NCBI GenBank assembly: GCA_963709285.1
Contig: CAVPVR010000010.1
Coordinates: 451,570 to 515,569 of the forward strand
Source: an uncultured delta proteobacterium
GTDB lineage: Bacteria; Desulfobacterota; Desulfobaccia; Desulfobaccales; 0-14-0-80-60-11
Reading direction: 5' to 3'
Length of the DNA stretch: 64,000 bases
Shown here: positions 7,636 through 31,010 of the stretch, piece by piece
Numbering within the stretch: position 1 is the stretch's first letter
Layout: every line of letters starts with the position of its first letter
Translations under genes and position numbers: made by a program
Notes under the pieces: generated by a model
Databases searched by the model: none
What the model was told of the DNA's origin: nothing
Seen by the model: only the letters and a program-made list of their open reading frames with translations

Positions 7636-9720
7636 CTACCCTACCCGCACCCGGACATCCAAAGCCACCATACCCTCTTCCCCGGGAAAGACCCGCACCG
7701 GGTTCAAGTCCACTTCCTGTATCTGGGGGAAGCGCTCCATGAGATGGGACAGGGCCGACAGGGCCCGGCCGAGGGCCGCCAGGTCAGCGGCAGGCCTTCC
7801 CCGAGCGCCTTGCAGGATCAGGCCCATTTTCGTCTCCAGGATCTGGCGCTGGGCTTCCTGGGGGCTAATGGGGCCTACCCTGAGGGCCACGTCCTCCAAA
7901 ATCTCAGTCCACACCCCGCCGGCGCCAAAAGCAACCACTGCCCCAAAAGCCTGGTCCCGGCGAGCCCCCAGGAGCACCTCCTCGCCTGCGGCGGCCTGTT
8001 TCATAACCACCACCTGCCAGGGCTCCCCCGGCGGCACCTGCACCCGGGCGGTCTCGGCTAACGCGTGAAAAGCCTGGGCTGTGGCCTCTGCATCACCCAG
8101 ATTTAACACCACGCCCCCCACCTCGGTCTTGTGGACCAGGGAGGGGGCGGCAAGCTTCAGGACTACCGGATAGCCCAATTCAGAGGCGGCAGCCAGAACC
8201 TCCCCCTCATTGGCCGCCACCAGCCAGGCAGCCACAGGGATATCCACCGCCTCCAACAGGGTGAGGGCCTGGGGCATGGGTAAAAAGCCGTCCGCTGCCG
8301 CCGTAGTCAAGAGAGCGGCCAGGCGTTCTTCATCAAAACCAGGTTGATCAATCGACGGGTCATCCGCCGGGGGCCGCTGATAAAAGTCCCGGCTGTATGC
8401 CAGGCCACGCACCGCCTGGCCCGGAAAATGAAAAACCGGCACCCCCAGGTCTTCCCGGAAGTACTCTTCCTCCTCCAGGGTATAGCACACACTAATGGCC
8501 AAAGGCTTGCCTGCCGACCGGGAGGTGTTGACAAAGTGCTGGGCCATATCCCGGGCCTCGGCACGTTCCGGGTCATAGACCGGCCCATGGTTCAGGAGCA
8601 CAGCGTCCACCCCCGGGTCCTGGCAGAGATGGTCCATAACCCGGGAGTAGACCCCAAAGTCGAAAATATCCCCCAAATCAATGGGATTAGTGGGTTTGAT
8701 GATCTTGGAGCGGGAGCTTTTGTGGATGAAGTCGGTAATCTCCGGAGCCAGGGGAGGGAGCGTAAATCCCCAGCGTTTGCAGGCATAGGCCCCCACCACC
8801 GCCTCGCCGCCGCTGCGGGAGAGGATCACCAGGCGGTTCCCCTTGACCGGGGCTTGCCCCACCATCTTGGCGGCGATGAGGAAATCAGCCTGGCTCAGCA
8901 CCCGGGAGATGTTCCCCTGGCGACAGGCCGCCTCCACCACCTTTTCATCGGTGGCCAGAGAGGCCGTGTGCGACATGGCGATGCCGGAGGTCTCCGGTAC
9001 CACGTTGGCGATTTGTAAGAACATGGGCTTGCTGGCCCGCTTGGCCACCTCCAGGAGCCCCCGGCCATCTTCCAGGCCCTCGAGGTAGAGGTAGATCATC
9101 TCGGTGCCCGGGTCCTCCAGGAAATAGGCCAGGGCTTCGTTTTCTTGAACGTCCAGCTTGTTCCCCAGGCTCAGGAATTTATTCAGGCCCAGGCCCTCCT
9201 TGTGCATCCAGGCGACCACGTGCATGCCCACGCCGCCGCTTTGGGAAATAACCGAGATGCTGCCCCGCCGGGGCACGGGGGTGATCTGGGAAAACGGCAG
9301 AGACAGGCCGATCTCCATATTGATAACCCCCAGGCCGTTGGGTCCGATGAGCCTGAGGTTGTAGCGCTTAATGAGACCTTTGAGCTCTTCTTCCAGGGCC
9401 CTCCCCTGCTCCCCCAACTCCGAAAAGCCCCCTGACTCCACAACCACCCGGGTGATGCCTAACTCCCCGCAAGCCGCCACCACCTCGGGCACAAAGCGGG
9501 CCGGGGTGAGGATGGCGACCAGGTCCACGGGCTCAGGCAATTCCTGGAGGTGAGTATAAATGGGCTTGCCAAAGACCTCGCCGCCCCGCGGGCCCACCAG
9601 GAAAATTTTCCCCTGGTAGCCAGCCTCCATCATATTTAGGACAATGCCCCGGCCCAGGTTCAAAGGGTTTTCCGAGACACCTATCACTGCCACACTTTGA
9701 GGATAGTAGAATTTTTGCAT
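7636..9720 (-). CDS. ADP-forming acetyl-CoA synthetase / acetate--CoA ligase family (fused alpha and beta domains)
   Basis: CoA-binding N-terminus (VAVIGVSENP), a succinyl-CoA-synthetase-like flavodoxin domain and a C-terminal ATP-grasp domain. I chose the internal start MQKFYYP (ATG at 9720) over the ORF-track start at 9792. Confidence 0.85.
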   Translation of the reverse strand: MQKFYYPQSVAVIGVSENPLNLGRGIVLNMMEAGYQGKIFLVGPRGGEVFGKPIYTHLQELPEPVDLVAILTPARFVPEVVAACGELGITRVVVESGGFSELGEQGRALEEELKGLIKRYNLRLIGPNGLGVINMEIGLSLPFSQITPVPRRGSISVISQSGGVGMHVVAWMHKEGLGLNKFLSLGNKLDVQENEALAYFLEDPGTEMIYLYLEGLEDGRGLLEVAKRASKPMFLQIANVVPETSGIAMSHTASLATDEKVVEAACRQGNISRVLSQADFLIAAKMVGQAPVKGNRLVILSRSGGEAVVGAYACKRWGFTLPPLAPEITDFIHKSSRSKIIKPTNPIDLGDIFDFGVYSRVMDHLCQDPGVDAVLLNHGPVYDPERAEARDMAQHFVNTSRSAGKPLAISVCYTLEEEEYFREDLGVPVFHFPGQAVRGLAYSRDFYQRPPADDPSIDQPGFDEERLAALLTTAAADGFLPMPQALTLLEAVDIPVAAWLVAANEGEVLAAASELGYPVVLKLAAPSLVHKTEVGGVVLNLGDAEATAQAFHALAETARVQVPPGEPWQVVVMKQAAAGEEVLLGARRDQAFGAVVAFGAGGVWTEILEDVALRVGPISPQEAQRQILETKMGLILQGARGRPAADLAALGRALSALSHLMERFPQIQEVDLNPVRVFPGEEGMVALDVRVRVG

Positions 9721-10001
9721 CGTTTCTTCCTGTCTGATAAGAATTCTGAAAAAGCCAGGTAAAGGGAGGGAGTAAGGCCCGGGGACCTCCATCCCTCCCT
9801 CAATCTCTCAGGCCAAACCCTTGACGAAGTAATCCCGGGAACGTTTTCGACCCCGGGATTTTGACCAGGTTATGATATCACATTATTCCACTTCGGCAGG
9901 GAGAGAAAGGAAAAGAACCGGACCTCAAACCTTATTAACTTTTTCGCCGGGTAAGTAGTGCAGACCTGTAGTATAAAAACCTATCCCGAATACTGGCAGG
10001 C

Positions 10002-10646
10002 TTGGGACCCAAAAATCGCCCCGAAGAGGTGAACGTGCTCTACGAAAAGTGTGAGGAGGTAAATGAAGAATTCTGGCAGGAGCTCTCAGGGCTCCCCCCG
10101 GCGGAAGTGACCCGTCGCACCGGCGCTGCCTGGGTTGAAGGCTCCTACCGGCTCTCCTTTCTTGACCGCGTAGGCAAAATTGACCTGGCAAAACGCACTG
10201 TCCAGGTGGAGGGGTTCGAGTCCCGGGACCCTGGCTTCCGGCTCTGTCTCACCGCCCTCCTCTACCTTTCCCGGGTGGACCCCGCCTCGCTGGGGCCGCT
10301 GGTCAGTCCCCTGGAACTTACCGGTGGACCCACCTTTTTCATGGACCGGGGCCCCCACGCACTCCCCAATGCCCCTCTGGAGGAACGCTTTGGGCATGAC
10401 CTGACCGGATTCCTGAACGCGGGAGAGCTCCTGGGCGCGGAACGCCGGGCCGTCGGGGACGCCGCTCTGGCCTTTCAAGTTTTCCCGGGGCTGACGGTGG
10501 AAGTGATTCTCTGGCTGGCGGACGAGGAATTCCCCGCCCAGGTGTCCTTCCGGGTGCCCGGCTCCCTGGAGCGGGTCTGGCATTTGGACGCGGTCCTGGG
10601 ACTCCTGCAGCTCCTTGCCTGGGAAATCCTGGCCACCGCAGCTTAA
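10002..10646 (+). CDS. DUF3786-like protein
   Basis: 214-aa ORF. The pattern EE.W..L....P.EV..R.GA......Y.L.FL ... FF.G.H.LP recalls DUF3786 proteins from memory. The true start is probably the GTG at 10029 or 10035. Confidence 0.5.
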   Translation: MGPKNRPEEVNVLYEKCEEVNEEFWQELSGLPPAEVTRRTGAAWVEGSYRLSFLDRVGKIDLAKRTVQVEGFESRDPGFRLCLTALLYLSRVDPASLGPLVSPLELTGGPTFFMDRGPHALPNAPLEERFGHDLTGFLNAGELLGAERRAVGDAALAFQVFPGLTVEVILWLADEEFPAQVSFRVPGSLERVWHLDAVLGLLQLLAWEILATAA

Positions 10647-10790
10647 CGGATTGGTCTTTTTACCCCGCCAAGGTAACCGCCACCGCGCCAAAACCTGACC
10701 CCTTCAACCTGAAAAGAGCAGGCCTAGTAAGACCAGGAGAGTGCCGCTACCTTGCCAAACCAGGGTGAAGGGGCTACAATGAAAACCCGA

Positions 10791-10865
10791 GCCGGCATAG
10801 CTCAGTGGTAGAGCAGCTGATTCGTAATCAGCAGGTCTGGGGTTCAAATCCCCATGCCGGCTCCA
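10791..10865 (+). tRNA. tRNA-Thr (anticodon CGU), CCA encoded
   Basis: Folded by hand as a cloverleaf: acceptor GCCGGCA/TGCCGGC, D arm GCTC/GAGC, anticodon stem GCTGA/TCAGC with loop TTCGTAA, T arm TGGGG/CCCCA with TTCAAAT, discriminator T plus CCA. Confidence 0.92.
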
Positions 10866-11099
10866 GTTAATTCAATAAGCTAGTCTCATGCTTTTGACCC
10901 GGTGGACGTCTCCATGCCCCCAAAGCGGTAGTTGGAGAGCTTCAATCTACTCAAAGGATTGATACTGCAGGATTACCGCTTCAAAGACCAAGACGACATC
11001 CGGGAATTCTTCCCCCGCCTTACCAGTCTTTATAAGAATTACAACTACAGTGCGCCCGATACCCCTTTACCCTTTCATTGCTCCAGTCAACCCTGGACC

Positions 11100-11489
11100 C
11101 TACAGCATTCCTTCCTGGATGAGCTTGCGCTGGTGGGCCTGGCGCATCTTGTCGAAAAGTTCGTCCAAGGGCACCGGCTTCATGACATAGTCGAAGGCGC
11201 CGAGCTGCATGGCCTGGGCACTTGACTCCACCGAAGCCTCCCCGGTGAGTATGATGACCTCAGTCAAGGGCTTTTTCTTTTTCAACGCTTTCAGGATTTC
11301 GATGCCGTCCAGACCTGGGAGGTGCTCTTCCAGGATCACCACGTCAAAGTCCTGGCTGTCCAACAGTTGCAGGGCCGCCTCACCATGGTCCACCGTGCTG
11401 ACCTCCAGGTCATGGTTTTTGAGGTGCTTCACTATGGTCTCCAGGAAGTCTTGGTCAGCATCCGCTACCAGCACTTTGAATGTTTTCAT
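11100..11489 (-). CDS. Stand-alone CheY-like receiver protein with Glu at the phospho-acceptor position
   Basis: 129 aa. Receiver landmarks are present (ADAD acidic pocket, ILTG Thr, VMKP Lys), but DVVILEEHLPGLDG aligns E where CheY has D57. Confidence 0.85.
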   Translation of the reverse strand: MKTFKVLVADADQDFLETIVKHLKNHDLEVSTVDHGEAALQLLDSQDFDVVILEEHLPGLDGIEILKALKKKKPLTEVIILTGEASVESSAQAMQLGAFDYVMKPVPLDELFDKMRQAHQRKLIQEGML

Positions 11490-11667
11490 GGGAAGCCCTT
11501 TTCCTGCTGCAACGCCCTCCCTGGCATTTCCTTAGATTTGTGAAATCCATCCTAAATGAAGGGTCTCATCCCTGTCAAGAACATAGCTCATGCCGAACTA
11601 ATATCCTCTTGACATAAAGAGGTGTATACGTTTTATTGTAAGGGAATTTGAGAGGTGAACTAATAAT

Positions 11668-12582
11668 ATGTCTGAAGAAGTGCTGGGCTCAGTGGTGGTG
11701 GTAGGAGGCGGCATTGCGGGCATGCAGGCTGCCCTCGATTTGGCCAACTCAGGATACTATGTTTACCTGGTGGAAAAAGGCCCCGCCATCGGCGGAACCA
11801 TGGCGCAGATTGACAAGACCTTTCCCACCAACGACTGCGCCATGTGAATTATTTCCCCCAAGCTGGTCGAGGTCGGCCGGCACACCAACATCGAACTCCA
11901 TACTCTGGCCCACGTCAGGGATGTTACCGGCAAGCCGGGGAATCTTGAAATTCTCATTGAAAAGCAAGCCCGCTTCGTGGACCCCGCCAAGTGCACGGGT
12001 TGCGGCACCTGCCTGGATGTCTGCCCCATCCGCTATGAGGTTCAGCTTCCGGACGAAACCAGGGCCCGGGCTGCCTTCTCCCAAGTAACGGACGAACAGG
12101 CGGTGACCGATATCATCGCCCGTCACCGGGACGAGCGGGGCAACCTGTTGCCCGTGCTGTTGGATGTCAACCGCCACTTCAACTGGCTCCCCCGCCCTGC
12201 CCTGGAGCAGGTTTCCGACGAACTCAAGCTGCCCCTGGCAGAAATCCTCCGGGTGGCCAGCTTTTACAATGCCTTTTCCCTGGTCCCCCGGGGCAAGCAC
12301 ATCATCAACGTTTGCATGGGCACAGGCTGTTTCGTCAAGGGCTCACCTCGCCTGTTGGACTCCCTGGAACGGGAACTCGGCCTCAAGCACGGCCAGACCA
12401 CGGAGGACATGCTCTTCACCCTGGAGGTGGTTCGCTGTATCGGCTGCTGCGCCCTGGCCCCGGCCATGCGGGTGGGGGAAGACACCTTCGGGCGTCTCAC
12501 CCCGAGCCTGATCCCCAAAATTCTCAAATCATACGCCGAGTCCTACGGCCGTGAAGATGCGGAGGAGGAAGCGGCGGGATGA
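11668..12582 (+). CDS. Selenoprotein fusion: HdrA N-terminal segment (about 130 aa) fused to a NuoE-type [2Fe-2S] thioredoxin-like domain
   Basis: Hand translation from the ATG at 11668 gives [17 protein letters not shown]...[14 protein letters not shown](11845-11847)-IISPKLVEV...[12 protein letters not shown]. It continues in the same frame (the ORF-track 11977..12582 frame) into NuoE motifs NVCMGTGC and [10 protein letters not shown]. The TGA replaces the Cys of the canonical HdrA NDC.MC motif. Its stop overlaps the next ATG (ATGA). Confidence 0.8.
11863..11880 (+). promoter_or_regulatory. Weak SECIS-like hairpin 15 nt after the UGA at 11845
   Basis: CUGGUC / GGCCGG 6-bp stem (two G-U pairs) with loop GAGGUC. 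It has the same 15-nt spacing as the two stronger hairpins in mvhD and mvhA. Confidence 0.3.
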
Positions 12583-14489
12583 AGGTCAGATCTCTGGAAC
12601 GACTGGCAGATATCAAAAAACAAGGCCTGGCTCTCACCTACCCTGACAAAGTCAAAATTATGGTGGGTATGGCCACCTGTGGTATCTCCGCCGGAGCTGA
12701 TAAGGTCTATGCTGCTTTAGAGGCCAAAATTGCGGAACTGGGCCTGGACGTGGCCTTGGAAAAGACCGGCTGCATCGGTTTCTGTCAGCGAGAACCCCTG
12801 GTAGATGTAGTGTATCCCAAGCAGGTGCGCCTCTCCTATCAGGGCATGACCCCGGAGAAAGCCGAGGGCCTGGTGGAAGCCTTGTGGAAGGGGGAAGTTT
12901 ACCCGGAAAACCTGCTGTGCCGCATCGACCAGGAGGACATATTGGTGGAAGGCCAGGTGCGGCCCTACGCCAACCCCCATCCCCCTACCCTAACGGTGGA
13001 GTTACCCCGGTATGATGAACTGCCCTTCTTCGGCAAGCAGGTGAAAATCGCGCTCCGCAACTGCGGCTTCATCCACCCGGAACGCATCGAAGAATACATC
13101 GCCCGGGGTGGCTATCAGGCCCTTCACCAAGTGCTTACCGGGATGACCCCGGAAGAGGTCATTGCGGAAGTCAAGTCCTCGGGCCTCAGAGGGCGGGGCG
13201 GCGCCGGCTTTCCCACCGGACTCAAGTGGGAGTTCGCCCGCAAAAATGACAGCGACGAGAAATATGTCATCTGCAACGCCGATGAAGGGGACCCCGGGGC
13301 CTTCATGGACCGGGGCATCCTGGAGGGCGACCCCCATGCGGTCATCGAGGGCATGGCCATCGGGGCCTATGCCATCGGCGCCCACGAAGGCTATGTCTAT
13401 TGCCGGGCGGAATATCCCCTGGCCGTTCACCGCCTGAAAATCGCCATCGACCAGGCAGAGGCCCTGGGACTTCTGGGCGATAAGATTTTCGGGACCAATT
13501 TCTCCCTCAAGCTGAAAATCCGTGAGGGCGCCGGCGCCTTCGTCTGTGGCGAGGAGACTTCTCTCATCGCCTCCATCGAGGGCAAAGTGGGCGAACCCCG
13601 CCCCCGGCCCCCCTTCCCGGCCCAAAGCGGTCTCTGGGGCAAGCCTACCATTATCAACAACGTCAAGACCTGGAGTCACATTGCTCCCATCGTCATGCGG
13701 GGCGCGGAGTGGTACGCCGGCTTCGGCACCGAAGGCAGCAAGGGCACCACGGTTTTCGCCCTGGTGGGCAAAGTCAACAACACCGGTCTCGTGGAAATTC
13801 CCCTGGGCATGACGCTTAGGGAAATGATCTTCGACATTGGCGGTGGCATCGCCGGAGGGCGGGAGTTCAAAGCGGTGCAGACCGGCGGCCCCAGCGGCGG
13901 CTGCATCCCGGAGGAGTTTCTGGACACCCCGGTGGACTATGAGTCCCTGGGGGCCCTGGGCTCCATTATGGGTTCTGGCGGCATGATCGTCATGGACGAA
14001 CGGGACTGCATGGTGGACGTGGCCAAGTACTTCATCGATTTCACCCAGGACGAGTCCTGCGGCAAATGCACCCCGTGCCGGGAAGGCACCCTCCGGCTCA
14101 TGGAAATGCTGGAGGCCGTCACCGCGGGCCAGGGTAGCGAGGAGGACCTCGACAAGCTGGCCCACATGAGCGAGTTAATCAAAAAGACCTCGCTCTGTGG
14201 CCTGGGCCAGACCGCGCCCAACCCGGTGCTGTCCACCATCCGTTACTTCCGGGACGAATATCTGGCCCATATCCGGGACGGCAAATGTCCGGCCAAAGTC
14301 TGTAAGCCTCTCATCACCTTCTCGGTTGTCGAAGAAAACTGCACGGGCTGCCAATTATGCCGCCTGAAATGCCCGGCCGAAGCGGTGGCGGGAGCCAAAA
14401 AAGAGGTGCACCACATCATTCAGGAAAACTGCATCAAGTGTGGCACCTGTTTCGAAGGCTGTAAATTCGACGCTATTGTGATTGAATAG
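12579..14489 (+). CDS. NuoF-like NAD(P)H-binding FMN/Fe-S flavoprotein (HydB/NuoF family with N-terminal thioredoxin-like and C-terminal 2x[4Fe-4S] domains)
   Basis: 636 aa. GLRGRGGAGFPTG, the ESCGKCTPCREG N3 cluster motif and two C..C..C...CP motifs at the C-terminus. Confidence 0.9.
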   Translation: MKVRSLERLADIKKQGLALTYPDKVKIMVGMATCGISAGADKVYAALEAKIAELGLDVALEKTGCIGFCQREPLVDVVYPKQVRLSYQGMTPEKAEGLVEALWKGEVYPENLLCRIDQEDILVEGQVRPYANPHPPTLTVELPRYDELPFFGKQVKIALRNCGFIHPERIEEYIARGGYQALHQVLTGMTPEEVIAEVKSSGLRGRGGAGFPTGLKWEFARKNDSDEKYVICNADEGDPGAFMDRGILEGDPHAVIEGMAIGAYAIGAHEGYVYCRAEYPLAVHRLKIAIDQAEALGLLGDKIFGTNFSLKLKIREGAGAFVCGEETSLIASIEGKVGEPRPRPPFPAQSGLWGKPTIINNVKTWSHIAPIVMRGAEWYAGFGTEGSKGTTVFALVGKVNNTGLVEIPLGMTLREMIFDIGGGIAGGREFKAVQTGGPSGGCIPEEFLDTPVDYESLGALGSIMGSGGMIVMDERDCMVDVAKYFIDFTQDESCGKCTPCREGTLRLMEMLEAVTAGQGSEEDLDKLAHMSELIKKTSLCGLGQTAPNPVLSTIRYFRDEYLAHIRDGKCPAKVCKPLITFSVVEENCTGCQLCRLKCPAEAVAGAKKEVHHIIQENCIKCGTCFEGCKFDAIVIE

Positions 14490-14537
14490 CTATAAGCTAT
14501 AAGCTTTAAGCCTTAAGCTTTAAGCAATAAGCTATTA
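14489..14537. repeat. 7-bp tandem repeat (GCTWTAA x7) starting in the nuoF-like stop codon
   Basis: Read directly: gctataa gctataa gctttaa gccttaa gctttaa gcaataa gctatta. Confidence 0.85.
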
Positions 14538-14610
14538 GAAAATGTAGGGCGCGTCGTCTCACGCGCCATCAATATGTGCTCAAAGCTCACAGCTCCAAAA
14601 GAAAGCCCCT

Positions 14611-17600
14611 ATGGTTACCTTAACAATCAATGACAAACCCATAGAAGTCCACGAGGGCACCACTGTATTGGCCGCGGCCCGGCAGTTGGGCGTCAACATC
14701 CCCACCCTCTGCCATCAGGAAGGCCTCAAACCTTATGGCGGTTGCCGCCTCTGCCTGGTGGAAGTGACCGCCGGTCCCCGTACCCAGCTCACTGCGTCCT
14801 GCACCTACCCCGTGGCCGAGGGCCTGGTAGTGCAGACCGACACGGAGGAGGTGCTGGCCGGCCGCCGCCTGGTCATGGATCTCCTCTTGTCCAGGTGTCC
14901 CGAGGTGCCGGCCCTGCAGGAGATGGCTCGGCAAGTGGGCCTCGAAGAGCCCAGCTTCGCCAAGGGGGAAAGTGACTGCATTTTGTGCGGCAAGTGTGTG
15001 CGCATGTGCTTTGAAGTCCAGGGGGTGGGCGCCATCAGCATGGTAAACCGGGGCGCCAAACGGCAAGTCGTCACTCCGTTCGGGGAGTTTTCCCAGGTGT
15101 GCCGCACCTGCGGGGCCTGCCAGTTCGTCTGCCCCACCGGCCACTTCACCGATATCGGCGGCATCAGTGGCAAAACCGCCATACCCCAAGGCGCTGAGTT
15201 TAACCAGGGCCTCAACAGCCGGGGCAACATCTTCCGCACGTATCCCCAGGCGGTGCCCAACACCCCCACCATCGACCGGGATAACTGCATCCATTTTTTG
15301 ACGGGGGACTGCGGCTTGTGCGCCGAAGCCTGCGCCGCTGAGGCCATCGACTATGAGCAACAGGAAGAAACTGTTACCCTCCAGGCCGGCAGCGTAATTT
15401 TGGCTCCGGGGTTCAAGCCCTATGACCCCACCGTTCTGATCGACTATGGCTACGGTGTCTACCCCAACGTTTACACCAGCCTCGAGTTTGAGCGCATCCT
15501 CTCTCCCGGGGGCCCCTTCGCCGGGCACATCCAGCGCCGCTCTGACGGCAAGGAGCCCCAGAAAATCGCCTGGCTCCAGTGTGTGGGCATGCGGAGCGAT
15601 AAGGAAGGGTATCATCCTTACTGTTCAGGGTTCTGCTGCATGGCCTCCCTCAAACAGGGCATGATTGCTAAAGAGCACCAGGGCACCGACCTGGACACCG
15701 CGGTTTTCTACATGGATATGCGCACGCCCCGCAAGGACTTCGAAAAATACTACGCCAGGGCCGAAGACCTGGGGGCTCGCCTCATCCGCTCCCGGGTGCA
15801 CTCCATTCACGAGGACGAGCAGACCCAAGACCTCAGCTTGCGCTACACCATGGAAAGTGGAGAGCTCAAAGAAGAAACCTTTGATATGGTGGTCCTGTCC
15901 GTGGGCGGAGTCATCACCCGGGATGTCATCGACTTGGCTCAAAAGCTCAAGGTGCGCCTGTCCCACAACCGCTTCATGGACACTGAGTGCTTTAAGCCGG
16001 TGACCACCTCTCGGCCGGGTATTTACTCCTGCGGCTTTTTCAACGGCCCCAAGGACATTCCCCAAACCGTGATGGAAGGGCAGCGCCGCCGCCATGGAGG
16101 CCTCCAAAGAATTGGCCATGGCCAAGGGCACCCTCATCCGGCAGAAGGAATTCCCCCCGGAACAGGACTTTTCCGGACCAGCCGGCCCGCATTGGGGTCT
16201 TTGTGTGCCACTGCGGTCTGAACATCGGGGGTACCGCCGATATTCCGGAAATTGTTGAGTATGCTCAGAACATCCCCAACGTGGAGTATGTCCAGGCCAA
16301 CCTCTTCTCCTGCTCCCAGGATGCCCAGGCCCAGATGGTGGAGATGATCAAGGAGCACGACCTCAACCGGGTGGTGGTGGCGGCCTGCAGTCCCTCCACG
16401 CACCAACCCATTTTTCAGGATATGCTCAGGAACGCCGGCCTCAACAAATACCTCTTTGAGATGGCCAATATCCGCAACCAGTGCACCTGGGTGCACCAGC
16501 ACAACCCGGAGATGGCCACCGACAAGTGCAAGGACCTGGTGCGCATGGCCGCGGCCAAGTCCGGTCTGCTGCAACCTCTAGACTACCTCTCCGTGCCGGT
16601 GAACAAAAAGGCTCTGGTCATCGGCGGCGGCGTCGCCGGCATGACCACTGCTCTGGGGCTGGCGGAACAGGGCTACGAAACGCATCTGGTGGAACGCAAA
16701 GACCGCCTGGGCGGCAATGCCTTGCGCCTGCACAGCACCTGGCGGGGCGGCCTGGTGGGCTGGCGGCTTGAGCGGCTCCTGGCCAACGTGACTCAGCCAT
16801 CCCCGCATCACCGTGCATTACAAGGCCATTGTCACCGGGGTTGAAGGGGTGGTGGGGAACTTCAAGACCAAGCTCAGCAGCGGCGCAGTCGTCAACCACG
16901 GCGTGGTGGTCCTCGCCACCGGCGCCGAGCCTTACCGTCCGGAGGGTCAGTTCCTTTACAAAAAGCACCCCAACGTGCTGCTGTCCCTGGATCTGGATCA
17001 GGAATTCATCAATGAAACCGACCGGCTGAAAGAAGCCCAGGCCTTCGCCTTCATCCAGTGCGTCGGCTCCCGGTCCCCGGAACGGCCGTATTGCATGAAG
17101 GTGTGCTGCTCCCACTCGGTGGAGAATGCCCTCAAGATCAAAGAACATGGACCCCGATAAAGACGTCTACGTCCTGTACCGGGATATGCGCACCTATGGC
17201 GAGCGGGAGATGTTGTATACCGCAGCCCGGGAAGCGGGCGTGATTTTCATCCGCTATCACCATGAGGACCCGCCCCACGTGGAGGAAGCGCCGGACGGCC
17301 GCATCAGGATCACGACGAAAGACCACATTCTGAATAGGCCGGTCACCTTCGACGTGGATGTCCTGACTCTGGCCACGGCCATCATTCCGCACCACAATGC
17401 GCCCCTGGCCGAACTCTACAAGATCCCCTTGAACGCCGAGGGCTTTTTCACTGAGGCCCACGCCAAGATCAAACCGGTGGACGCACCCACGGAAGGCATC
17501 TATCTGGCGGGGCTGTGCCACTATCCCAAGCCCCTCCAGGAGTCGGTGGCCGAGGCCCTGGCCACGCGCGGCCCGAGCCTCCACCATCCTGGCCCAGGAC

Positions 17601-17870
17601 ACCTTGTTGCTGGAGTCCACCATCTCCCGGCCCATCGACGAAAATTGCGACGGCTGCGCCTTCTGCGTGGACACCTGCCCCTTCCAGGCCATCACTCTCC
17701 TCGAGTACATGAGCGACGGCCATGTGAAAAAAACCGTGGAAGTGAGCGAGGTGCAGTGCAAAGGCTGCGGCTCGTGTATGGCCACCTGCCCCAAGCAGGG
17801 CATTGAAGTGTCGGGTTTCACCATGGAGCAACTCCAGGCCATGGTGGACGCAGCCCTGGAAGTGGCCTGA
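14611..17870 (+). pseudogene. hdrA: NuoG-N-like [2Fe-2S]/[4Fe-4S] ferredoxin domain fused to the remainder of HdrA; frame-disrupted about 5 times as given
   Basis: Residues 1-190 are a 2Fe-2S plus 4Fe-4S domain (CHQEGL.PYGGCRLC). From 15181 (IPQGAEFNQGLNSRGNIFRTYPQAVP) the sequence is colinear with HdrA. Homology continues through ORF-track pieces 16203..16844 (VFVCHCGLNIGG), 16813..17160, 17126..17806 and 17604..17870 (C-terminal 2x[4Fe-4S]). Frame changes occur near 16079, 16185, 16793, 17149 and 17563, each consistent with one extra base. Confidence 0.8.
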
Positions 17871-17923
17871 TGTTTTCTGTGGATAACCAAGCTTACTTGT
17901 GCTTAAATAGCAGGTCATGAACC

Positions 17924-18343
17924 ATGGAAGAACAGTTCGAACCGTTACTGATCGCCTTCCTCTGCAACTGGTGCTCCTATGCCGGTGCGGACCTGGCCGG
18001 AGTGTCGCGGATTCAGTACCCTGCCAACGGCCGCATCATCCGGGTGATGTGCTCCGGCATGGTGCACCCCAACCTGGTCATCAACGCCCTCACCAAAGGG
18101 GCGGACGGTGTCCTGATGTGCGGGTGACACCTGGGCGAATGTCATTACCTGGAAGGTAATGTCAAAGCACAAAGCCGGGCGGAAGGCATCGATCTCATGC
18201 TGGAGGACTTCGGGCTGGAGCCCGAGCGCTTCCGCCTCGAGTGGATCTCCTCCTCCGAAGCCCAAAAATTTGCGGACGTCATGACCGAGATGGTGGAGAC
18301 TTTGCGGGAGTTGGGTCCCAGTCCCTATAGCACCAGGTACTGA
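17924..18343 (+). CDS. mvhD: MvhD/FlpD-type hydrogenase delta subunit, selenoprotein
   Basis: LIAFLCNWCSYAGADLAG...GADGVLMCG-TGA(18125-18127)-HLGECHYLEGN...LEWISSSE. The TGA sits where MvhD has the Cys of GC..G.CHY. The frame stays open to the TGA at 18341-18343. Confidence 0.85.
18143..18161 (+). promoter_or_regulatory. SECIS-like hairpin 15 nt after the mvhD UGA
   Basis: Perfect 7-bp stem CAUUACC/GGUAAUG with loop UGGAA. Confidence 0.5.
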
Positions 18344-18387
18344 AGCTCGACACTAGTAAGATCGTTTCCCCTGAATCGGAAAACACC

Positions 18388-18582
18388 ATGGATATACCTT
18401 TGGCCCAGAAAATTGACGGCAAAAAGTTTCTGTGGGATAACGTCAACTATGAATCCCGGGAGGTAGCCCAAAAGGCCATGGAGGCCTATGAGCAGGAGGG
18501 CTTTGAAGTGGAGCTGATCGAAATCGAGGGTCAGTTCCTGGTTTACTCCCGGCGCCTGGCGGCCGTGCAATCAGCAGAATAA
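18388..18582 (+). CDS. Hypothetical 64-aa protein between mvhD and mvhG
   Basis: ORF-track ORF that fills the mvhD-mvhG gap on the same strand. No family recognised. Confidence 0.4.
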   Translation: MDIPLAQKIDGKKFLWDNVNYESREVAQKAMEAYEQEGFEVELIEIEGQFLVYSRRLAAVQSAE

Positions 18583-18612
18583 CCCCAACACCTACCATGA
18601 AGGAGGGAGGAG

Positions 18613-19560
18613 ATGGCGGTAAGAGTCGTGGAAGACTGGCTAAACGCCTGTTCGGGATGCGAGATTTCCATCCTCAACATCGGCGACCCGTTACTGGACA
18701 TTCTGCCCCTGCTCGAGTTTCACCACATGACCGCGCTGGTGGATCACAAGTTCTTCGGTCAGCTCGGAGATAAGACGGACATGGAGATCCCTGAGGCCGA
18801 CGTGGCCATTGTCTCCGGCGGGGTGCGGAATGAAGAGATGAAACACGAACTGGAGGAGATTCGCAAGAAAACCCAAATTCTCATAGCCCTGGGAAGCTGT
18901 GCCGCCTACGGGGGCATCCCCGCCCAGGCCAACATGTGGAAGAATGAAGACATCTTTGAAAAAGTCTTCCGCCACTGCGCTTCCACCGAACCCGGCCCGG
19001 ACCCCACTGATCCCAGTGTGCCGAAATGGACTCCCACCTGCATGGCGGTGGACGAGGTGGTCAAGGTGGACATCACCATCCCCGGCTGCCCGCCTCACCC
19101 GGACTGGATCGTGGACGCCCTCACCGCGGTGTTGGAAGGCAAGGCCGACTGGAAACTCCCTGAGCGCAGTGTCTGTGACACCTGCCCGGTGATCCGGGAG
19201 AAGAAATCTTCCGGCGGCTCGGTCAAGCGGGTGTTTGAAAATGCGGAATTCAATCCCGAGGAAGGCCTGGACAAGATGCGCTGCATTAACGAGCAGGGCA
19301 TCCTGTGCATGGGACCGGTGACCCTGGCGGGTTGCGCCGGCAAGGAAGGGGTGCCCCGCTGCGTGCAGGCCCGCACCCCCTGCCGGGGCTGTTTCGGGCC
19401 CATCCGCAAGGGGGCCAACCCCATGGTGGACATGATGGGTTCCCTTACCTCCGTGGGACTCGACGCCAAGACCCTGGTGGACCGCCGGGCTCTCATGAAC
19501 CGCTACATCGGCGGCCACGGCATGCTCAAGCCGCTACCGCCCCGCCCGGTGCGGAGATAA
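18613..19560 (+). CDS. mvhG: [NiFe]-hydrogenase small subunit, Mvh/F420-non-reducing type
   Basis: 315 aa. The N-terminus lacks a Tat signal (cytoplasmic type). Has the CSGCEISILN proximal cluster motif and further Cys clusters (GCPP, C..C, CRGC). Confidence 0.9.
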   Translation: MAVRVVEDWLNACSGCEISILNIGDPLLDILPLLEFHHMTALVDHKFFGQLGDKTDMEIPEADVAIVSGGVRNEEMKHELEEIRKKTQILIALGSCAAYGGIPAQANMWKNEDIFEKVFRHCASTEPGPDPTDPSVPKWTPTCMAVDEVVKVDITIPGCPPHPDWIVDALTAVLEGKADWKLPERSVCDTCPVIREKKSSGGSVKRVFENAEFNPEEGLDKMRCINEQGILCMGPVTLAGCAGKEGVPRCVQARTPCRGCFGPIRKGANPMVDMMGSLTSVGLDAKTLVDRRALMNRYIGGHGMLKPLPPRPVRR

Positions 19561-19572
19561 GGGGGTAAACCT

Positions 19573-21019
19573 ATGGGCAAAGTTATCAATATCCAGCCAG
19601 TGACCAGAATCGAAGGGCACGCCAAAGTGTCCATCTTCCTGGACGACGCCGGCAACGTCTCCGACACCAGGTTTTACGTCCAGACCTTACGGGGTTTCGA
19701 AAAGTTCTGCGAAGGCCGTCCGGCCGAAGAAATGCCCCGCATTGTCTGCCACATCTGCGGCATCTGCCCCTGGGCCCATCATCTGGCCTCCAGCAAGGCC
19801 ACGGATGCGCTGTTCGGGGTGACGCCGCCGCCGGCCGCGGTGAAGCTGCGCCGTCTCATGCAGTCCATCGCCTACGTCAGCGACAAGATCCTCCACTTCT
19901 TCTTCCTGGCCGCGCCGGACTTCGTCATCGGCCCCGACGCCGACTACTGCGGTGCGCAATGTCATCGGCATCGTCAAGGCCGCGCCGGACATCGCCAAGC
20001 AGGTGGTGCACTATCGGCACCTGGGGGCCAAGCTGCTGGAGGACTTCGCGGGTCGGGCCATTCACCCCACCTTCTCCTTGCCCGGCGGGGTGAGCAAGCC
20101 CATGACCGAGACCGAACGCCAGGCGATGCTCCCCGCGGCCAAAGAACTCCTGGAGTTCTCCAAGTTCACCATCAAGTTTGCCAAGGAAAACGTCTTCCCG
20201 AAGTACCTGGAGGCCATCGAAAAAATCGGCGTCATCAAGGTGGGCTATCTGGGCACGGTCACCGACGACGGCGCTCTGGACTTCTATGACGGCAAGCTTC
20301 GCCTCATGCAGCCCGACGGCGCCTTCGATGATTTCGCCTACGACCAGTACGTGGACTATATTGGGCGAGCATATCGAAGACTGGTCCTATCAGAAGTTCC
20401 CCTACGCCAAGAAGTGGGGCGGCTTCGCCCTGGACCTGGCCAACCCCCAGGGGGTCTACCGCACCAACACCCTGGCCCGGATCAACGTGGCCGACAAGAT
20501 GAAGACCCCCCTGGCCCAGGCCGAGCTCGAAGAGTTCCGGGAAAAGTTCGGGCGGCCGGCCCACTTGACCCTGCTCTATCATTACGCCCGCCTCATCGAG
20601 ATGGTCCAGTGCGCCGAGGAAGCGGTCATGCTCCTGGAAGACCCGGAGATCACCGACACCAACATCCGGGTGAAGATCGAACCCCGGGAAGCCAGGGGCG
20701 TGGGCTGTGTCGAAGCGCCCCGGGGCACCCTGATCCATGACTACACCATGGACAGCAATGGCGCTCATCACCAGCGTCAACCTGATTGTGGGCACCACCC
20801 ACAACAACGCCGCCATCAACCTCTCCGTCACCCAGGCGGCCCAGGAGTTAATCAAGGAAGGCACGTATGACCAGGGCATCCTCAACACGGTGGAAATGGC
20901 CATACGCGCCTACGACCCGTGACTGAGCTGCGCCACCCACCGCCTGGACGGCGGTGTTGCAGTCGAGAGTCACCATCCTGAACAACCAAGGCCAGGTGAT
21001 CGATAAGCTCAGCAACTAA
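19573..21019 (+). pseudogene. mvhA: [NiFeSe]-hydrogenase large subunit, Mvh type; frame-disrupted about 4 times as given
   Basis: N-terminal RIEGH and RICGICP motifs. Homology continues through ORF-track pieces 19952.., 20178.. and 20737.. . The C-terminal motif reads YDP-TGA(20920-20922)-LSCATH, the DPU..C..H NiFeSe signature. The tail VTILNNQGQVIDKLSN* needs one more shift near 20962. Other shifts lie near 19951, 20364 and 20762. Confidence 0.85.
20938..20956 (+). promoter_or_regulatory. SECIS-like hairpin 15 nt after the mvhA UGA
   Basis: Perfect 7-bp stem CACCGCC/GGCGGUG with loop UGGAC. It has the same geometry and UGGA loop start as the mvhD hairpin. Confidence 0.5.
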
Positions 21020-21053
21020 TTCTCCGCTCGTTGCGGATTCGCTGAAAAATAAT

Positions 21054-21102
21054 CTGGGGCCCCAGGACATTTTCCTTCCCGTCCTGCGGCCCCAGCCTTT
21101 TT
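21054..21102 (+). terminator. Rho-independent terminator of the hydrogenase operon
   Basis: CTGGGGCCCCAGGAC ... GTCCTGCGGCCCCAG gives 14 of 15 paired positions, followed by CCTTTTT. Confidence 0.65.
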
Positions 21103-21223
21103 GGGATCAATTAAAAAGTTATCGAAAATGGCAATCTATAAAAACTTTTGTACCCAAGTTTTTGCTTTCTATTTGGCAATACATCTCTGGTTCGACTTGA
21201 TACCCGCTCAACTTAAAACCTGA

Positions 21224-21245
21224 CCAAGGACCGTAGCCTTTCGCA
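21224..21245 (+). repeat. Truncated REP unit abutting the RAYT stop codon
   Basis: ccaaggaccgtagcctttcgc matches the 5' half of the REP consensus. Confidence 0.5.
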
Positions 21246-21773
21246 TTATTCCATCTCCAAACGCCGAACCTCATCATCTGCCGCCCAGTCAAGATTATAA
21301 ATACCCCGGCGCACGTACGTGTGGAAGCTGGAATAAGGCCAATCCGCCACCTTCGTGACGTGACCGTGCTTCACCGGATTGTAGTGGATGTATTCCACGT
21401 GACGCTCAAAATCATGCTCGTCCCGGATGACGTGTTCCCAAAAACGACGCTGCCAAATGCCTCGTTCCCCCTTCTGCCGGCGACGCGCTGAAAGCCTCTC
21501 CCCTCCGGGAATTTTGGCTGCAAATCGTGCTTTGATATCATGCCAGCGCGTTGAGAAATCCGCGTCCCCGGAAGGCAACGTCCAGATACAATGGAGGTGA
21601 TCGGGCAAAATGACGATGGCCTCGATAGTGAATGGTCGGCGTTGGCGGGCCGCCCTGAACGACGCCCGAAGATCGTCAATGTGTTCGGTCAAGAGTTTTC
21701 GATGGCGTTCCAGCAAGGCAACCGTGAAAAAGAACGTGCCTCCTGGAACAAAGGCGCGAAGGTATTGCGGCAT
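21246..21773 (-). CDS. REP-associated tyrosine transposase (RAYT, IS200/IS605-like Y1 transposase)
   Basis: 175 aa. Has the LPDHLHCIW HuH motif and a C-terminal YIHYNPVKHG catalytic Tyr region, and is flanked by REP units. Confidence 0.85.
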   Translation of the reverse strand: MPQYLRAFVPGGTFFFTVALLERHRKLLTEHIDDLRASFRAARQRRPFTIEAIVILPDHLHCIWTLPSGDADFSTRWHDIKARFAAKIPGGERLSARRRQKGERGIWQRRFWEHVIRDEHDFERHVEYIHYNPVKHGHVTKVADWPYSSFHTYVRRGIYNLDWAADDEVRRLEME

Positions 21774-21799
21774 GACGTCAGTTTACCCCAATTCTTTAA

Positions 21800-21832
21800 G
21801 GCGGGATGCGCTTCGCTTTCCCGCCCTACGGG
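21800..21832 (-). repeat. REP unit (inverted orientation) just upstream of the RAYT start
   Basis: ggcgggatgcgcttcgctttcccgccctacgg is the reverse complement of the REP consensus. Confidence 0.75.
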
Positions 21833-21911
21833 TTACTACGGGTTACGGAAATAGGGACAGTGAGTTTCACAAACACTTATACCACAAATATTACTCGCTT
21901 CGACTTATCTG

Positions 21912-22675
21912 CCCTATATTCCCGATTCCAAGCTTCATAAAAACGCCCTGGCCTCATTGGCAAAATTCCCCGTGCTGAAACCTCGTCCCCCAGCTCTGTT
22001 AAGGAACGCCCTTGGCGCCAGGCTCCCCGTGGCTTGTCAAAAAACCGCCCCGTCCCTTCCAGATAATGGTAACCGGAAAAATATGCTTCGAACTCTAGGG
22101 TAACCTCCCCAGGCCGTAAGGACCGTAGGGCGGGAAAGCGCCGCGCATCCCCCTTTCGCCTCATTCCATCTCCAGACGCCGACCAGGAGTGACCTTCCCC
22201 GCCTAACCGCGCCCTTTGTCCCAGCCGTACTGGCTCCCTAAACCACCTCTGCTACAGTAAATCCGTGGACTACGAGTATCATGGCCCAGGTTTCTCTTTC
22301 CCAAGGTTTCTGGGTTTAACTCCCCCTCCCCCGGCGGGAGGGGGGTGGGGGGAGGGGGATTTGCCAGCGTTTATTCAATCCCCCGATTCCATCCCAGTTC
22401 TCCGGGGGCAGAAAAAATGAAATGTTGCGGAACAAGAAATACCTATCCTAAAGCTAACCTACCGACATTACCAGAATATTTGGGCAATTTGTTGCGGCTC
22501 AGAAGCGGCACAATTCGCAAACTGTGCGGTACGATGTGGCACACCAGCGGGAACTTTGCGGTAATATCCGACACTGTTCCGCAATTTGCACCGCTCCATC
22601 CCGCCCCGTCCCGCTCGAACCGAAACGGGGTCAAGCGACAAAGACCTTCGATTATGTCTCTCGCCCCGCCATCGA
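21912..22675. repeat. Composite non-coding repeat, copy I (modules C1 21912-22111 and B1 22235-22675, interrupted by a REP plus a RAYT 3' remnant)
   Basis: Long blocks near-identical to 27596-28613. Examples: ctatatt.gcgat.ccaagctt..., hairpin GTTCCCCAG-N6-CTGGGGAAC, ...cctctgctacag..., gtttctctttcccaaggtttctgggtttaactccccctcccccggcgggagggggg..., ggatttgccagcgtttattcaat...gttgcggaac...ctttgcggtaatatccgacactgttccgcaa. Indels between the copies break every ORF. Confidence 0.8.
22120..22190 (+). repeat. REP unit plus about 30-nt remnant of a second RAYT gene 3' end
   Basis: 22120-22153 matches the REP consensus. 22158-22186 (tcgcctcattccatctccagacgccgacc) parallels 21241-21270, the last codons (RRLEME*) of the intact RAYT gene. 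Confidence 0.6.
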
Positions 22676-22799
22676 TAAGCTCAGCAACTAATTCTCCGCT
22701 CGTTGCGGATTCGCTTACAATTAATCTGGGGCCACCGGACGTTTTTCTTCCCGTCCTGCGGCCCCAGCTTTTTACGAACCAATAATAAAATGTTATCGA
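22671..22799 (+). repeat. Diverged duplicate of the mvhA 3' end plus terminator (copy of 20999-21126)
   Basis: atcgataagctcagcaactaattctccgctcgttgcggattcgct...ctggggcc.c.ggac...gtcctgcggccccag.ttttt is shared by both copies at roughly 85-90 percent identity by eye. The terminator-like hairpin is at 22726-22774. Confidence 0.8.
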
Positions 22800-22896
22800 T
22801 ATTGACAAGTTTTCAGCAAATCTATTCAATCTGACAGACTGCTTTGCCTTGGTGCAACATCTCCATGGGGGGTGATCCTCATAAATCCTAACTCCG

Positions 22897-23736
22897 TCAC
22901 GCTCCGCCAGGACCTCTGGGTTGATCTGGTGCCAAGCCTAACTTAAAACTTGGTACAATTGCTGAAGGCAGGTCATTCCGGGTCGGCGGCTCAGGGTCGT
23001 CAGTCAGAGGCGGTTGGCAAACTGGACACCTGATGCAGCCTGCCTTTTGGGCCTCGTCCACGGACTGGAAGACCCGAACTTTTCTCGGAATGATGGTTTT
23101 GGCCCACTTGCATTCGGGGTAATGGTATTTGTTGGAGGTGATGGACCCCACGTACGTGACTGCAGGGGTTGTTGGTTCCTGGGGAGTGTTGCTTACGGGC
23201 AAGGATTCCTGGTCGGCTGGCAGAGCTGAGGTCTCTCGGTCCGAAGCAGGGGTTTTGGGTTCCTGGGGGACCGGATTACCGGGCTGATCAGGCGACTTCA
23301 GGGAACGCGACCCTTTTTCTGGCGGCTGGGCAGGGATGATCTGCCTGATGGTCTGCCTCGATTTTTTGCCAGACAAGGCAAAGTTCTCCCTGAGAGAGAG
23401 GGAGAGCAGGCTGGACGCGAACATGAACGCACCCATGAGAAGGCAAAAAATAGAACCATAGATGGTGAGGCGGCGGACCTGGCTCTCCACCCTGGCCAGT
23501 CGCTCCAAAATCTTCGTCTCCTCGTAGGATTTCCTCGCCCGTTCGATGATACCTTCCTCTTCCAGAGGGGACACGACCTTATTCATTTTATTATCTGGCA
23601 GGGGCGGATTTGCCGCAGTCTCACCGGTGCTGGCCTCTTTTTTCACCACCTGGTTGAAATTGTGCATATCAACCTGGGAGTCCAGCTTCTCCGTGAAAAT
23701 CGAACTCTGCACCTCGTCTTTCATGAGTTTCTTCAA
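22897..23736 (-). CDS. Single-pass membrane protein with a C-terminal Ada-type Cys4 zinc-binding domain
   Basis: 279 aa. One TM helix (IYGSIFCLLMGAFMFASSLLSL), a Pro-rich linker and YHYPECKWAK...FQSVDEAQKAGCIRCPVCQP, which matches the Ada metal-binding domain pattern. The ATG at 23724 may be the real start. Confidence 0.6.
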   Translation of the reverse strand: MKKLMKDEVQSSIFTEKLDSQVDMHNFNQVVKKEASTGETAANPPLPDNKMNKVVSPLEEEGIIERARKSYEETKILERLARVESQVRRLTIYGSIFCLLMGAFMFASSLLSLSLRENFALSGKKSRQTIRQIIPAQPPEKGSRSLKSPDQPGNPVPQEPKTPASDRETSALPADQESLPVSNTPQEPTTPAVTYVGSITSNKYHYPECKWAKTIIPRKVRVFQSVDEAQKAGCIRCPVCQPPLTDDPEPPTRNDLPSAIVPSFKLGLAPDQPRGPGGA

Positions 23737-23934
23737 CTCCCGTCATTCTTGGTCGAGACTGGCTAACCTGGCCTCGAGTTCTTGTTGCACCGGTATTTCC
23801 GACGCTTCTGACCAAGGAACTGAGAGTCTTTCTGGCGTAAGAGTTGACAAAAAACGTCTCCTGACTACTTTATCATTCCCATCAAAGGCCTCATCCCAGG
23901 TGAGCCGCTCATGGGCCTCTCCTTTGGTCAGGCC

Positions 23935-25053
23935 TTACTGCACCAGCTTGGGGAGGCTGGCCCGCAGGGCCAGTTCGGAGCCGCCGGTGGGGATCCCCGT
24001 GTCGGTGCCGGGAGCCATGTAGCCGCCCCGGACCCAGCCTGAAACGGTTTTTTCCTTTTTATCTACCTCGATAATTTCGAAGGCCACAAAACCCTTCACC
24101 TCTCGCGACTGGTTGTAGGTCGTCGACCCGGGCACCACCGGCAGGATCACCGTCCAATCGCCGTTGTGCACGTTATAGAACTGCTGCTGCATATGCTTAA
24201 GCACCGAAGTGGCCACTCCGTTTTGCATCTGGATGTAGTCGCCGCACTTAATGCGCAGATCGTTGGGGTCGATATCCCCCCTGTCCCTCCAGTTGCCGTC
24301 GATCAGGTCTTCGAGGAGATCGGCGTTGCAATTATTGAGCTTAAACGCGTGCCAGCCACCGGTGTCCGAATGATCCGGGTTGAAGGTCACCCACATTTTT
24401 TCACCCACCGGCGGCACGTAGTTGTCGCCAACGGCAATGGGGAAGCCCCCACCCGGGCGCAGGTCCCGCACCCAGCCTAACAAGGCGGTGGCCTGGCCGG
24501 TAAGCTCCACGCTGTCGAGGCCCAAAAAACCGGCGAACCACAGGTTCACGGGGCCGTTCCAGGCGTTGCTGCGGCGGGTGGTCACCCGGACGGCATTGAG
24601 GGTGTAGGAGTTGGCGGCGTCGCAGGGCAGTTCCTGAAATTCCCAGGCGTTACTGGCGGCATTGTACTGCCAGACCCCCACCTGGACGTCTGCAGTGGAG
24701 ATCGAAAGTGGTTGGCCATCAGACTTGTTTTGCTGGACAACCTCCGTCGCCTTGAGATGGGCGTAAGCGCAGTTCAGCAGGTCTTTGGCATCCTGGGGTT
24801 GGGCGCCGTTGCCCAGCCAGTACAGGGACATGGCCCCGGCGTCGGCTCCGGCGTCGGCGGCGTTCTGGAGTTCCTGCCTGACCACATAAAGGTGGCCCAG
24901 GTCGATCACCAGCCCGGTAATGGCGAGGAGCATGAACATGGAAACCGCCACAAAAACCGCGGTGGCCCCTGATTCATCTCGGAATATAGGCTTCTTGAGG
25001 AAATTAGGGGCTTTCTTGCCTTTGCTGGGAAGGTTCAAGTTGTTCCTCATCAT
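23935..25053 (-). CDS. TadG-like (TadE/G N-terminal domain) pilus-associated protein, island copy
   Basis: 372 aa. The N-terminus GATAVFVAVSMFMLLAITGLVIDLGHLYVVRQELQNAADAGA fits the TadE/G-like pseudopilin-type leader. About 88 percent identical by eye to the ORF at 47351..48424. Confidence 0.75.
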   Translation of the reverse strand: MMRNNLNLPSKGKKAPNFLKKPIFRDESGATAVFVAVSMFMLLAITGLVIDLGHLYVVRQELQNAADAGADAGAMSLYWLGNGAQPQDAKDLLNCAYAHLKATEVVQQNKSDGQPLSISTADVQVGVWQYNAASNAWEFQELPCDAANSYTLNAVRVTTRRSNAWNGPVNLWFAGFLGLDSVELTGQATALLGWVRDLRPGGGFPIAVGDNYVPPVGEKMWVTFNPDHSDTGGWHAFKLNNCNADLLEDLIDGNWRDRGDIDPNDLRIKCGDYIQMQNGVATSVLKHMQQQFYNVHNGDWTVILPVVPGSTTYNQSREVKGFVAFEIIEVDKKEKTVSGWVRGGYMAPGTDTGIPTGGSELALRASLPKLVQ

Positions 25054-30228: not shown

Positions 30229-30230
30229 AT

Positions 30231-30941: not shown

Positions 30942-31010
30942 AGCAGTCCCCGGAGAACACAGGGCGAACCTACCCGGCGTCCGTTCTGGGCCTGGCCGCG
31001 GCTCCGCTGG

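Follow-up and report, generated by a model that had tools for sequence, protein, structure and literature searches.

Three genes of one hydrogenase operon carry an in-frame UGA codon at a position where a cysteine would be expected, and the question that this locus raises is whether these codons end the genes or are read as selenocysteine (Sec). The operon lies in a 64,000-nucleotide (nt) stretch of contig CAVPVR010000010.1 (assembly GCA_963709285.1) from an uncultured delta proteobacterium of the order Desulfobaccales, called the window below, and the three genes encode a fusion of an HdrA N-terminal fragment with a NuoE-like domain (HdrA-N::NuoE), MvhD and the hydrogenase large subunit MvhA. 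An earlier sequence-only reading had taken the UGAs for Sec codons replacing conserved Cys residues, each followed by a bacterial selenocysteine insertion sequence (SECIS) rather than by a chance hairpin. From the analysis reported here, we conclude that all three UGAs are very probably Sec codons, each recoded through its own bacterial SECIS hairpin, placed within the open reading frame (ORF) at codons +6 to +12 after the UGA. The comparison with relatives provides the strongest evidence, and the natural control offered by homologues with Cys instead of Sec is its most telling part.

The TGAs occupy positions 11845..11847, 18125..18127 and 20920..20922 of the + strand (sites 1, 2 and 3) and lie in the motifs NDCAM-U-I, MCG-U-HLGECHY and YDP-U-LSCATH, which the sequence and its translations confirm as first read. 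Alignment with homologues, which the sequence-only reading had proposed as a check, places each TGA opposite a Cys. U60 of the fusion protein is the second position of a CxxC/CxxU pair beside the FAD domain; query residue 60 aligns with chain residue 197 of HdrA in the PDB entries 5odc_A, 8rvu_a and 9sfi_A, so that it is equivalent to Cys197/Sec197, and NDCAMU pairs with TxDCSMC or TNDCSIC of the HdrA structures (TNDCSIC in 5odc_A). In HdrA of M. maripaludis, Sec197 forms a Cys-Sec pair between FAD and cluster A3, according to a cryo-electron microscopy study of 2026 (PMC13518236). U68 of MvhD, a member of the MvhD/VhuD/FrhD family (PF02662), stands in the context GADGVLMCG-U-HLGECHYLEGN, with TGA read as U, opposite the Cys of GGCHxGDCHY (GGCHIGDCHY) in 8rvu_F. 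The third codon takes the first position of the C-terminal nickel-binding motif DP-U-xxC-xxH of MvhA (context MAIRAYDP-U-LSCATHRLDGG), and its UxxC, in an alignment made through the orthologue of genome G004, sets YDPULSCATH against YDPCLSCATH of 9sw2_F, at the first Cys. This first Cys position of the hydrogenase motif DPCxxCxxH is Sec in [NiFeSe] hydrogenases, where it forms the UxxC motif (PMC9312934, PMC13188914). The same two sources bear out the earlier statement that HdrA, MvhD/VhuD and the NiFeSe large subunit are established selenoprotein families.

The comparison among relatives draws on the homologous codon with its flanks in 83 genomes of the order, supplemented by public contigs. 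Nearly all orthologues across the 83 genomes keep the in-frame TGA, and homology continues beyond it. At site 1, 28 distinct orthologues have TGA and 2 have TGC; at site 2, 47 distinct sequences of the order have TGA; at site 3, TGA stands in 48 distinct sequences, and another 2 have TGC. Cys-type relatives in the same order have TGC or TGT at all three codons. The codons that encode the hairpins are unusually constant in the Sec-type sequences. At site 1, codons +6 to +12 (CTG GTC GAG GTC GGC CGG CAC) show no synonymous variation in the 28 distinct Sec sequences, whereas 17/17 amino-acid-conserved degenerate codons of the flanks vary (Fisher p = 2.9e-6; the compared sequences are phylogenetically related, and this and the following p-values overstate their independence). 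At site 2, CAT TAC CTG GAA GGT AAT is frozen in 47 Sec sequences (5/5 vs 0/14, Fisher p = 8.6e-5), and at site 3, CAC CGC CTG GAY GGC GGY is constant among 48 sequences except for a loop position and the outermost pair (Fisher p = 0.017). Judged from these alignments, the pattern is unambiguous despite the kinship of the sequences.

Cys-type homologues use other codons for the same peptides and lose the helix, as in CAT TAT GTG GAA GGC AAT, CAC TAT CTG GAA GGC AAT and CAC CGT CTC GAC GGG GGT. The site 1 hairpin is present in 55/55 Sec-type and in 3/39 Cys-type homologues, and two of these three exceptions retain the Sec-type sequence exactly and give the impression of a recent change from Sec to Cys. 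Distant MvhD paralogues (52-59% identity) repeat the contrast: the hairpin occurs in 13 of 13 Sec-type sequences and in none of the 7 Cys-type ones, which encode the same HYLEGN or HYLRGN peptide, yet without the hairpin. The loops of the distant Sec paralogues read UGUAY or GGUCG. In a second Sec-type class of HdrA paralogues (motif KLVECGRH; five loci, the second HdrA copy of each), a stem UGAGUGC/GCACUUA carries a GGUCG loop 27 nt downstream of the UGA; the hairpin structure is replaced here and not lost. The comparison thus shows selection on synonymous sites of the hairpins only where the codon is TGA. With the same peptide encoded by frozen codons near TGA and by free ones near TGC, the contrast is a clean natural control that can identify a bacterial SECIS without covariation and could be reused. 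Some Cys-type (TGC/TGT) orthologues (L207 and L214 at site 1, L119 at site 3) retain an intact or nearly intact Sec-type hairpin; such a 'fossil SECIS' was apparently left after a recent Sec-to-Cys change.

The hairpins themselves, all on the + strand, were folded with ViennaRNA. Hairpin 1 (11862..11881) has an 8-bp stem, GCUGGUCG/CGGCCGGC, with two G-U pairs and an AGGU loop at 11870-11873; at -14 kcal/mol it is the most stable of the three (z-score -3.96 for the 24-mer), and the sequence-only reading, which had called it the weaker one and placed it at 11863-11880, had drawn it sub-optimally. Hairpin 2 (18143..18161) has a 7-bp stem, CAUUACC/GGUAAUG, and a UGGAA loop at 18150-18154 (-9.3 kcal/mol, z-score -3.7), to which ViennaRNA adds a U-A pair, giving 8 bp and a GGA loop. 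Hairpin 3 (20938..20956) has a 7-bp stem, CACCGCC/GGCGGUG, and a UGGAC loop at 20945-20949 (-13.4 kcal/mol, z-score -2.6); it lies within the codons for the C-terminal tail, directly after the His of the motif, and its core conserved in relatives is the 5-bp helix CCGCC/GGCGG. The two 7-bp stems and their loops are exactly as first drawn, and a start 15 nt after the UGA, which had been claimed for all three hairpins, holds for sites 2 and 3, but hairpin 1 begins 14 nt after its UGA. The feature that the three share exactly is the distance of 22 nt from the UGA to the start of the loop, together with GG at +24/+25.

The bacterial SECIS (bSECIS) model of Zhang and Gladyshev (2005), as far as it is set out in PMC13188914, describes a loop of 3-9 nt on an upper stem of 4-16 bp, at least one G at loop positions 1-2, as a rule with G or U after it, a distance of 16-37 nt from UGA to loop, and a minimum free energy no higher than -7.5 kcal/mol. 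The three hairpins agree with it in all four respects: the loops have 4, 5 and 5 nt and the stems 8, 7 and 7 bp, each loop has G at position 2 followed by G, the distance is 22 nt at all three sites, and the isolated hairpins fold at -14.0, -9.3 and -13.4 kcal/mol. Together with the TGA-specific synonymous constraint, this agreement upholds the earlier choice of bacterial SECIS over chance. The geometry (at least 6 bp, an NGG loop, offset 22) occurs after about 6 in 10,000 arbitrary trinucleotides of this genome, a rate that is indicative only because the detector was defined post hoc, with the sites already seen; a hairpin after three of three UGAs is far beyond chance. The TGAs that really end two of these genes (12580 and 18341) have no SECIS-like hairpin behind them.

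The genome (3.44 Mb in 11 contigs, 91.7% complete) also holds the genes for Sec decoding, so the search for selA, selB, selC and selD that the sequence-only reading had proposed found all of them. Profile searches gave 588.8 bits for selA (TIGR00474), 350 bits for selB (TIGR00475) and 383 bits for selD (TIGR00476), and the tRNA-Sec reached 72.7 bits on RF01852 and was called SeC, with anticodon tca, by ARAGORN; all four scores exceed the curated cut-offs, and the selABCD Sec-decoding trait is complete. The selD gene (contig C4, ~224890) is itself a selenoprotein gene with an in-frame TGA in the motif AAG-U-AAK, and its SECIS is a long helix from 4 nt after the UGA (-29.5 kcal/mol in a 60-nt window), unlike the short hairpins of the operon.

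Established knowledge of E. coli and Moorella suggests how these parts would work together. SelA would convert Ser-tRNA-Sec into Sec-tRNA-Sec with selenophosphate supplied by SelD, and SelB-GTP would bind the Sec-tRNA-Sec while its C-terminal domain binds the apical loop of the hairpin (G-G/U). The fixed distance, with the loop 22 nt after the UGA, would place the tRNA at the A site as the ribosome meets the UGA, and therefore Sec would outcompete release factor 2. Three products are predicted: an HdrA-N::NuoE fusion that carries a Cys-x-x-Sec pair where HdrA has residue 197, an MvhD with Sec in the GG-U-HxGxCHY motif, and a [NiFeSe] MvhA in which Sec would be a nickel ligand.

Besides the kinship of the compared sequences, several points weigh against reading the three UGAs as Sec codons served by SECIS elements. 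The stability z-scores of the 51-nt windows after the UGAs are modest (-1.2 to -1.8), and those of the bare hairpins are moderate (-2.6 to -4.0). The stems are invariant among Sec-type relatives, with almost no compensatory covariation; covariation is therefore not countable, and the case rests on synonymous-site conservation and the Sec/Cys contrast. A scan of positions 9000-24000 against Rfam, with E up to 10, returned no SECIS family, only a tRNA and chance matches. The bacterial SECIS models in Rfam cover few gene families, and for that reason the miss carries little weight. SelB binding, selenium incorporation and expression in the organism are inferred; for SelB binding and Sec insertion the support is indirect, from the loss of the hairpin where the codon is TGC or TGT and from the presence of selB. 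Finally, mvhA and the gene for the rest of HdrA (the HdrA-like gene) are frameshifted in the deposited sequence, and if the frameshifts are real, the operon would yield no functional enzyme in this strain.

The frameshifts give rise to the alternative that survives best, namely that real and very recent insertions have inactivated the operon in this strain, although its Sec codons and SECIS elements are genuine. Ten extra single bases stand out in the window against two orthologues that are single ORFs and about 85% identical: five in the HdrA-like gene (16078, 16173, 16791, 17148 and 17566), one between genes (17922) and four in mvhA (19949, 20363, 20763 and 20968). As a result, the HdrA-like gene, whose orthologues are single ORFs of 1096-1128 amino acids (aa), spans five frames in this assembly, and mvhA spans four or five. 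The earlier statement that the frames stay open after each TGA stands in so far as homology continues, but in mvhA the frame stays open for only 15 codons, where the extra A at 20968 shifts it; the true MvhA C-terminus, ...VAVE-VTILNNQGQVIDKLSN, continues in the next frame.

Although nine in-gene insertions and the intergenic one at 17922 do stand in the deposited sequence, their character argues against inactivation. All ten changes are +1 insertions, with no deletion among them, and removal of the nine in-gene bases restores complete, stop-free ORFs without any other defect. The broken genes have a ratio of nonsynonymous to synonymous substitution rates (dN/dS) of 0.10-0.13, matching that of the intact nuoF-like and mvhG neighbours and of the orthologue pair of genomes G004 and G005. 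Frame changes also occur in unrelated genes elsewhere in the window, near 30303, 30781 and 33567, in genes at about 30228-32375 and 32511-33945 whose relatives have single ORFs, which suggests that indel errors are spread through the assembly and not confined to the hydrogenase operon. Few contigs together with reduced completeness are typical of long-read metagenome-assembled genomes (MAGs). This assembly combines few contigs with a completeness of 91.7%, and mvhA is similarly fragmented in another few-contig, low-completeness genome of the order. We therefore regard all ten insertions as assembly errors with good, if not full, confidence, and their pattern fits long-read consensus errors; with insertions only, no other lesions and a normal dN/dS, the operon is unlikely to be a pseudogene, and its recent inactivation in this strain has a low probability.

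Much less probable is that the UGAs specify another amino acid in place of Sec, either Cys through a tRNA-ReC or allo-tRNA type suppressor acting on the same SECIS or Trp or Gly by near-cognate read-through. SECIS-dependent tRNAs that convert UGA to Cys have been reported in some Desulfobacterota genomes (PMC13582414), and an assembly that is ~92% complete could be missing a second tRNA. However, the tRNA-Sec, called tRNA-SeC and scoring 72.7 bits on RF01852, is the only UCA-anticodon tRNA among the 49 tRNAs that ARAGORN found in the assembly, and selA, selB and selD accompany it. Five weaker, sub-threshold RF01852 loci that were checked proved to be ordinary Leu, Ser, Tyr, Thr and Gly tRNAs, and a second UGA-decoding tRNA of the tRNA-ReC type was found neither among the 49 tRNAs nor among these loci. 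The least probable reading, that the hairpins are accidental by-products of conserved peptide motifs and the UGAs truncating stops or sequencing errors, can draw on the conservation of these motifs in Cys-type proteins too and on the unremarkable z-scores of the 51-nt windows, but it is already contradicted by the comparative data, since Cys-type sequences vary the codons for the same peptides (CAC/CAT, TAT/TAC, GGC/GGT, CGT/CGC, CTC/CTG) and form no hairpin, Sec-type codons show zero or near-zero synonymous variation, dozens of independent assemblies share the TGA and remain homologous beyond it, and truncation would remove essential cluster and nickel ligands.

Elsewhere in the same genome, five more plausible Sec sites share the hairpin geometry. 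Three HdrA paralogues (contig C3: 797212, 801133 and 689018) and an MvhD paralogue (C3:800309) have an in-frame TGA in the same motifs, followed by an AGGU or AGGAU loop 22 nt after the UGA. The fifth lies at C1:626483 (+), in a gene for an ArsM-like SAM-dependent methyltransferase, where an in-frame TGA (...LIDNWYQ-U-IGGALPGE...) precedes an 8-9-bp hairpin with the 22-nt spacing; this protein, its family judged from sequence alone, is a probable further selenoprotein. It is tempting, though rather doubtful, to think that in this lineage three unrelated selenoprotein families and the ArsM-like methyltransferase settled on one rigid SECIS geometry, by which we mean a short hairpin of 7-8 bp, a distance of exactly 22 nt from UGA to loop, and GG at +24/+25. 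If so, the geometry would reflect a narrower spacing requirement of SelB and the ribosome than the 16-37 nt of the general model, and the Cys-type orthologues that keep the hairpin (L207, L214 and in part L119) would be datable fossil SECIS elements that show the direction of change from Sec to Cys.

All genes of the operon lie on the + strand. The first (11668..12582), which the sequence-only reading had named HdrA, encodes 304 aa and is HdrA in its N-terminal FAD-binding fragment only: Pfam places FAD/NAD Rossmann families at residues 8-50 and PF01257 (NuoE-like) at residues 147-289 (2.8e-46). The Sec-bearing gene thus holds only ~125 N-terminal residues of HdrA, among them the CxxU site and the beginning of a 4Fe-4S motif, fused to the thioredoxin-like [2Fe-2S] NuoE part, and it is not a whole HdrA. 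An intact NuoF-like FMN/NADH-binding subunit of 636 aa follows (12579..14489; PF01512, PF10589). The rest of HdrA is encoded separately, in a gene at 14611..17870 that joins a NuoG-N-terminal-like [2Fe-2S]/[4Fe-4S] domain to the HdrA remainder (Pfam; 1086 aa once corrected) and has no Sec codon. Next come mvhD (17924..18343, 139 aa; PF02662, 1e-52; 8rvu_F, 2.6e-48), the intact mvhG for the [NiFe] hydrogenase small subunit (18613..19560, 315 aa; PF01058) and mvhA for a group-3c-type [NiFeSe] hydrogenase large subunit (19573..21019, 481 aa once corrected; 5e-124 for the orthologue against 9sw2_F). No hdrBC genes adjoin the HdrA/Mvh operon. The 304-aa HdrA-N::NuoE architecture, with HdrA split by a NuoE/NuoF/NuoG-N module, recurs full-length across the order, and Cys versions of the fusion with ~50-55% identity occur in MAGs labelled Bacteroidota, Ignavibacterium, Acidobacteriota and Phycisphaerae. 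The operon encodes a NuoEF-linked HdrA-Mvh [NiFeSe] hydrogenase that lacks HdrBC and is probably selenium-dependent.

Operons of this kind are known. Clustered genes for Sec-containing HdrA, MvhD and MvhA were described in Desulfobacterium autotrophicum HRM2 in 2009 (PMC2702500), reviews count the three among the standard selenoprotein families and treat them as a recurrent 'selenoprotein operon' (PMC9312934, PMC13188914), and a 'frhA-frhD-hdrA selenoprotein operon' is described in PMC13188914. The present locus likewise unites the three families in one operon and places Sec in the same motifs (CxxU in HdrA, UxxC in the hydrogenase large subunit, and the MvhD site), and its lineage is of the sulfate-reducer type and has complete selABCD. 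It differs from them in that HdrA is split and its Sec-bearing N-terminal fragment sits on NuoE, followed by the NuoF-like gene and the NuoG-N::HdrA-rest gene without adjacent hdrBC, and in that the host is an uncultured Desulfobaccales MAG. The hairpins resemble the bSECIS model and the SECIS of E. coli fdhF as in-ORF stem-loops that come just after the UGA on its 3' side and have a small apical loop beginning with G followed by G or U in its first positions, and they share with the model its range of spacing (16-37 nt) and an energy below -7.5 kcal/mol; unlike these, they are short and simple (7-8 bp), with no bulged U and no long lower stem, and their spacing is fixed at 22 nt. VhuD, VhuU and HdrA (Sec197) of M. 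maripaludis (PMC13518236; PDB 9sfi) are homologues, and the HdrA among them has Sec at the corresponding position, but the archaeal SECIS lies in the 3' untranslated region and has a different structure, whereas the elements here are of the bacterial in-ORF type. Since Sec-type HdrA, MvhD and MvhA operons of Deltaproteobacteria are already published, this locus is a well-supported, ordinary case of a known system, and the understanding of Sec decoding is unchanged by it. Mildly unusual are the Sec on a split HdrA-N::NuoE fusion, the uniform 22-nt geometry across families and the fossil hairpins in a few Cys-type relatives. For annotation, it matters that standard gene callers would truncate or split the three genes, which need to be read through as selenoproteins.

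Some minor features of the locus may be added. Two of the three selenoprotein genes also end in a real stop TGA, at 12580 and 18341, and the first of these overlaps the start of the nuoF-like gene as ATGA. Between mvhD and mvhG, at 18388-18582, lies an ORF of 64 aa (MDIPLAQKIDGKKFLWDNVNYESREV…). Downstream of 21100, synteny comparison with congeners finds mostly repeats and mobile elements.

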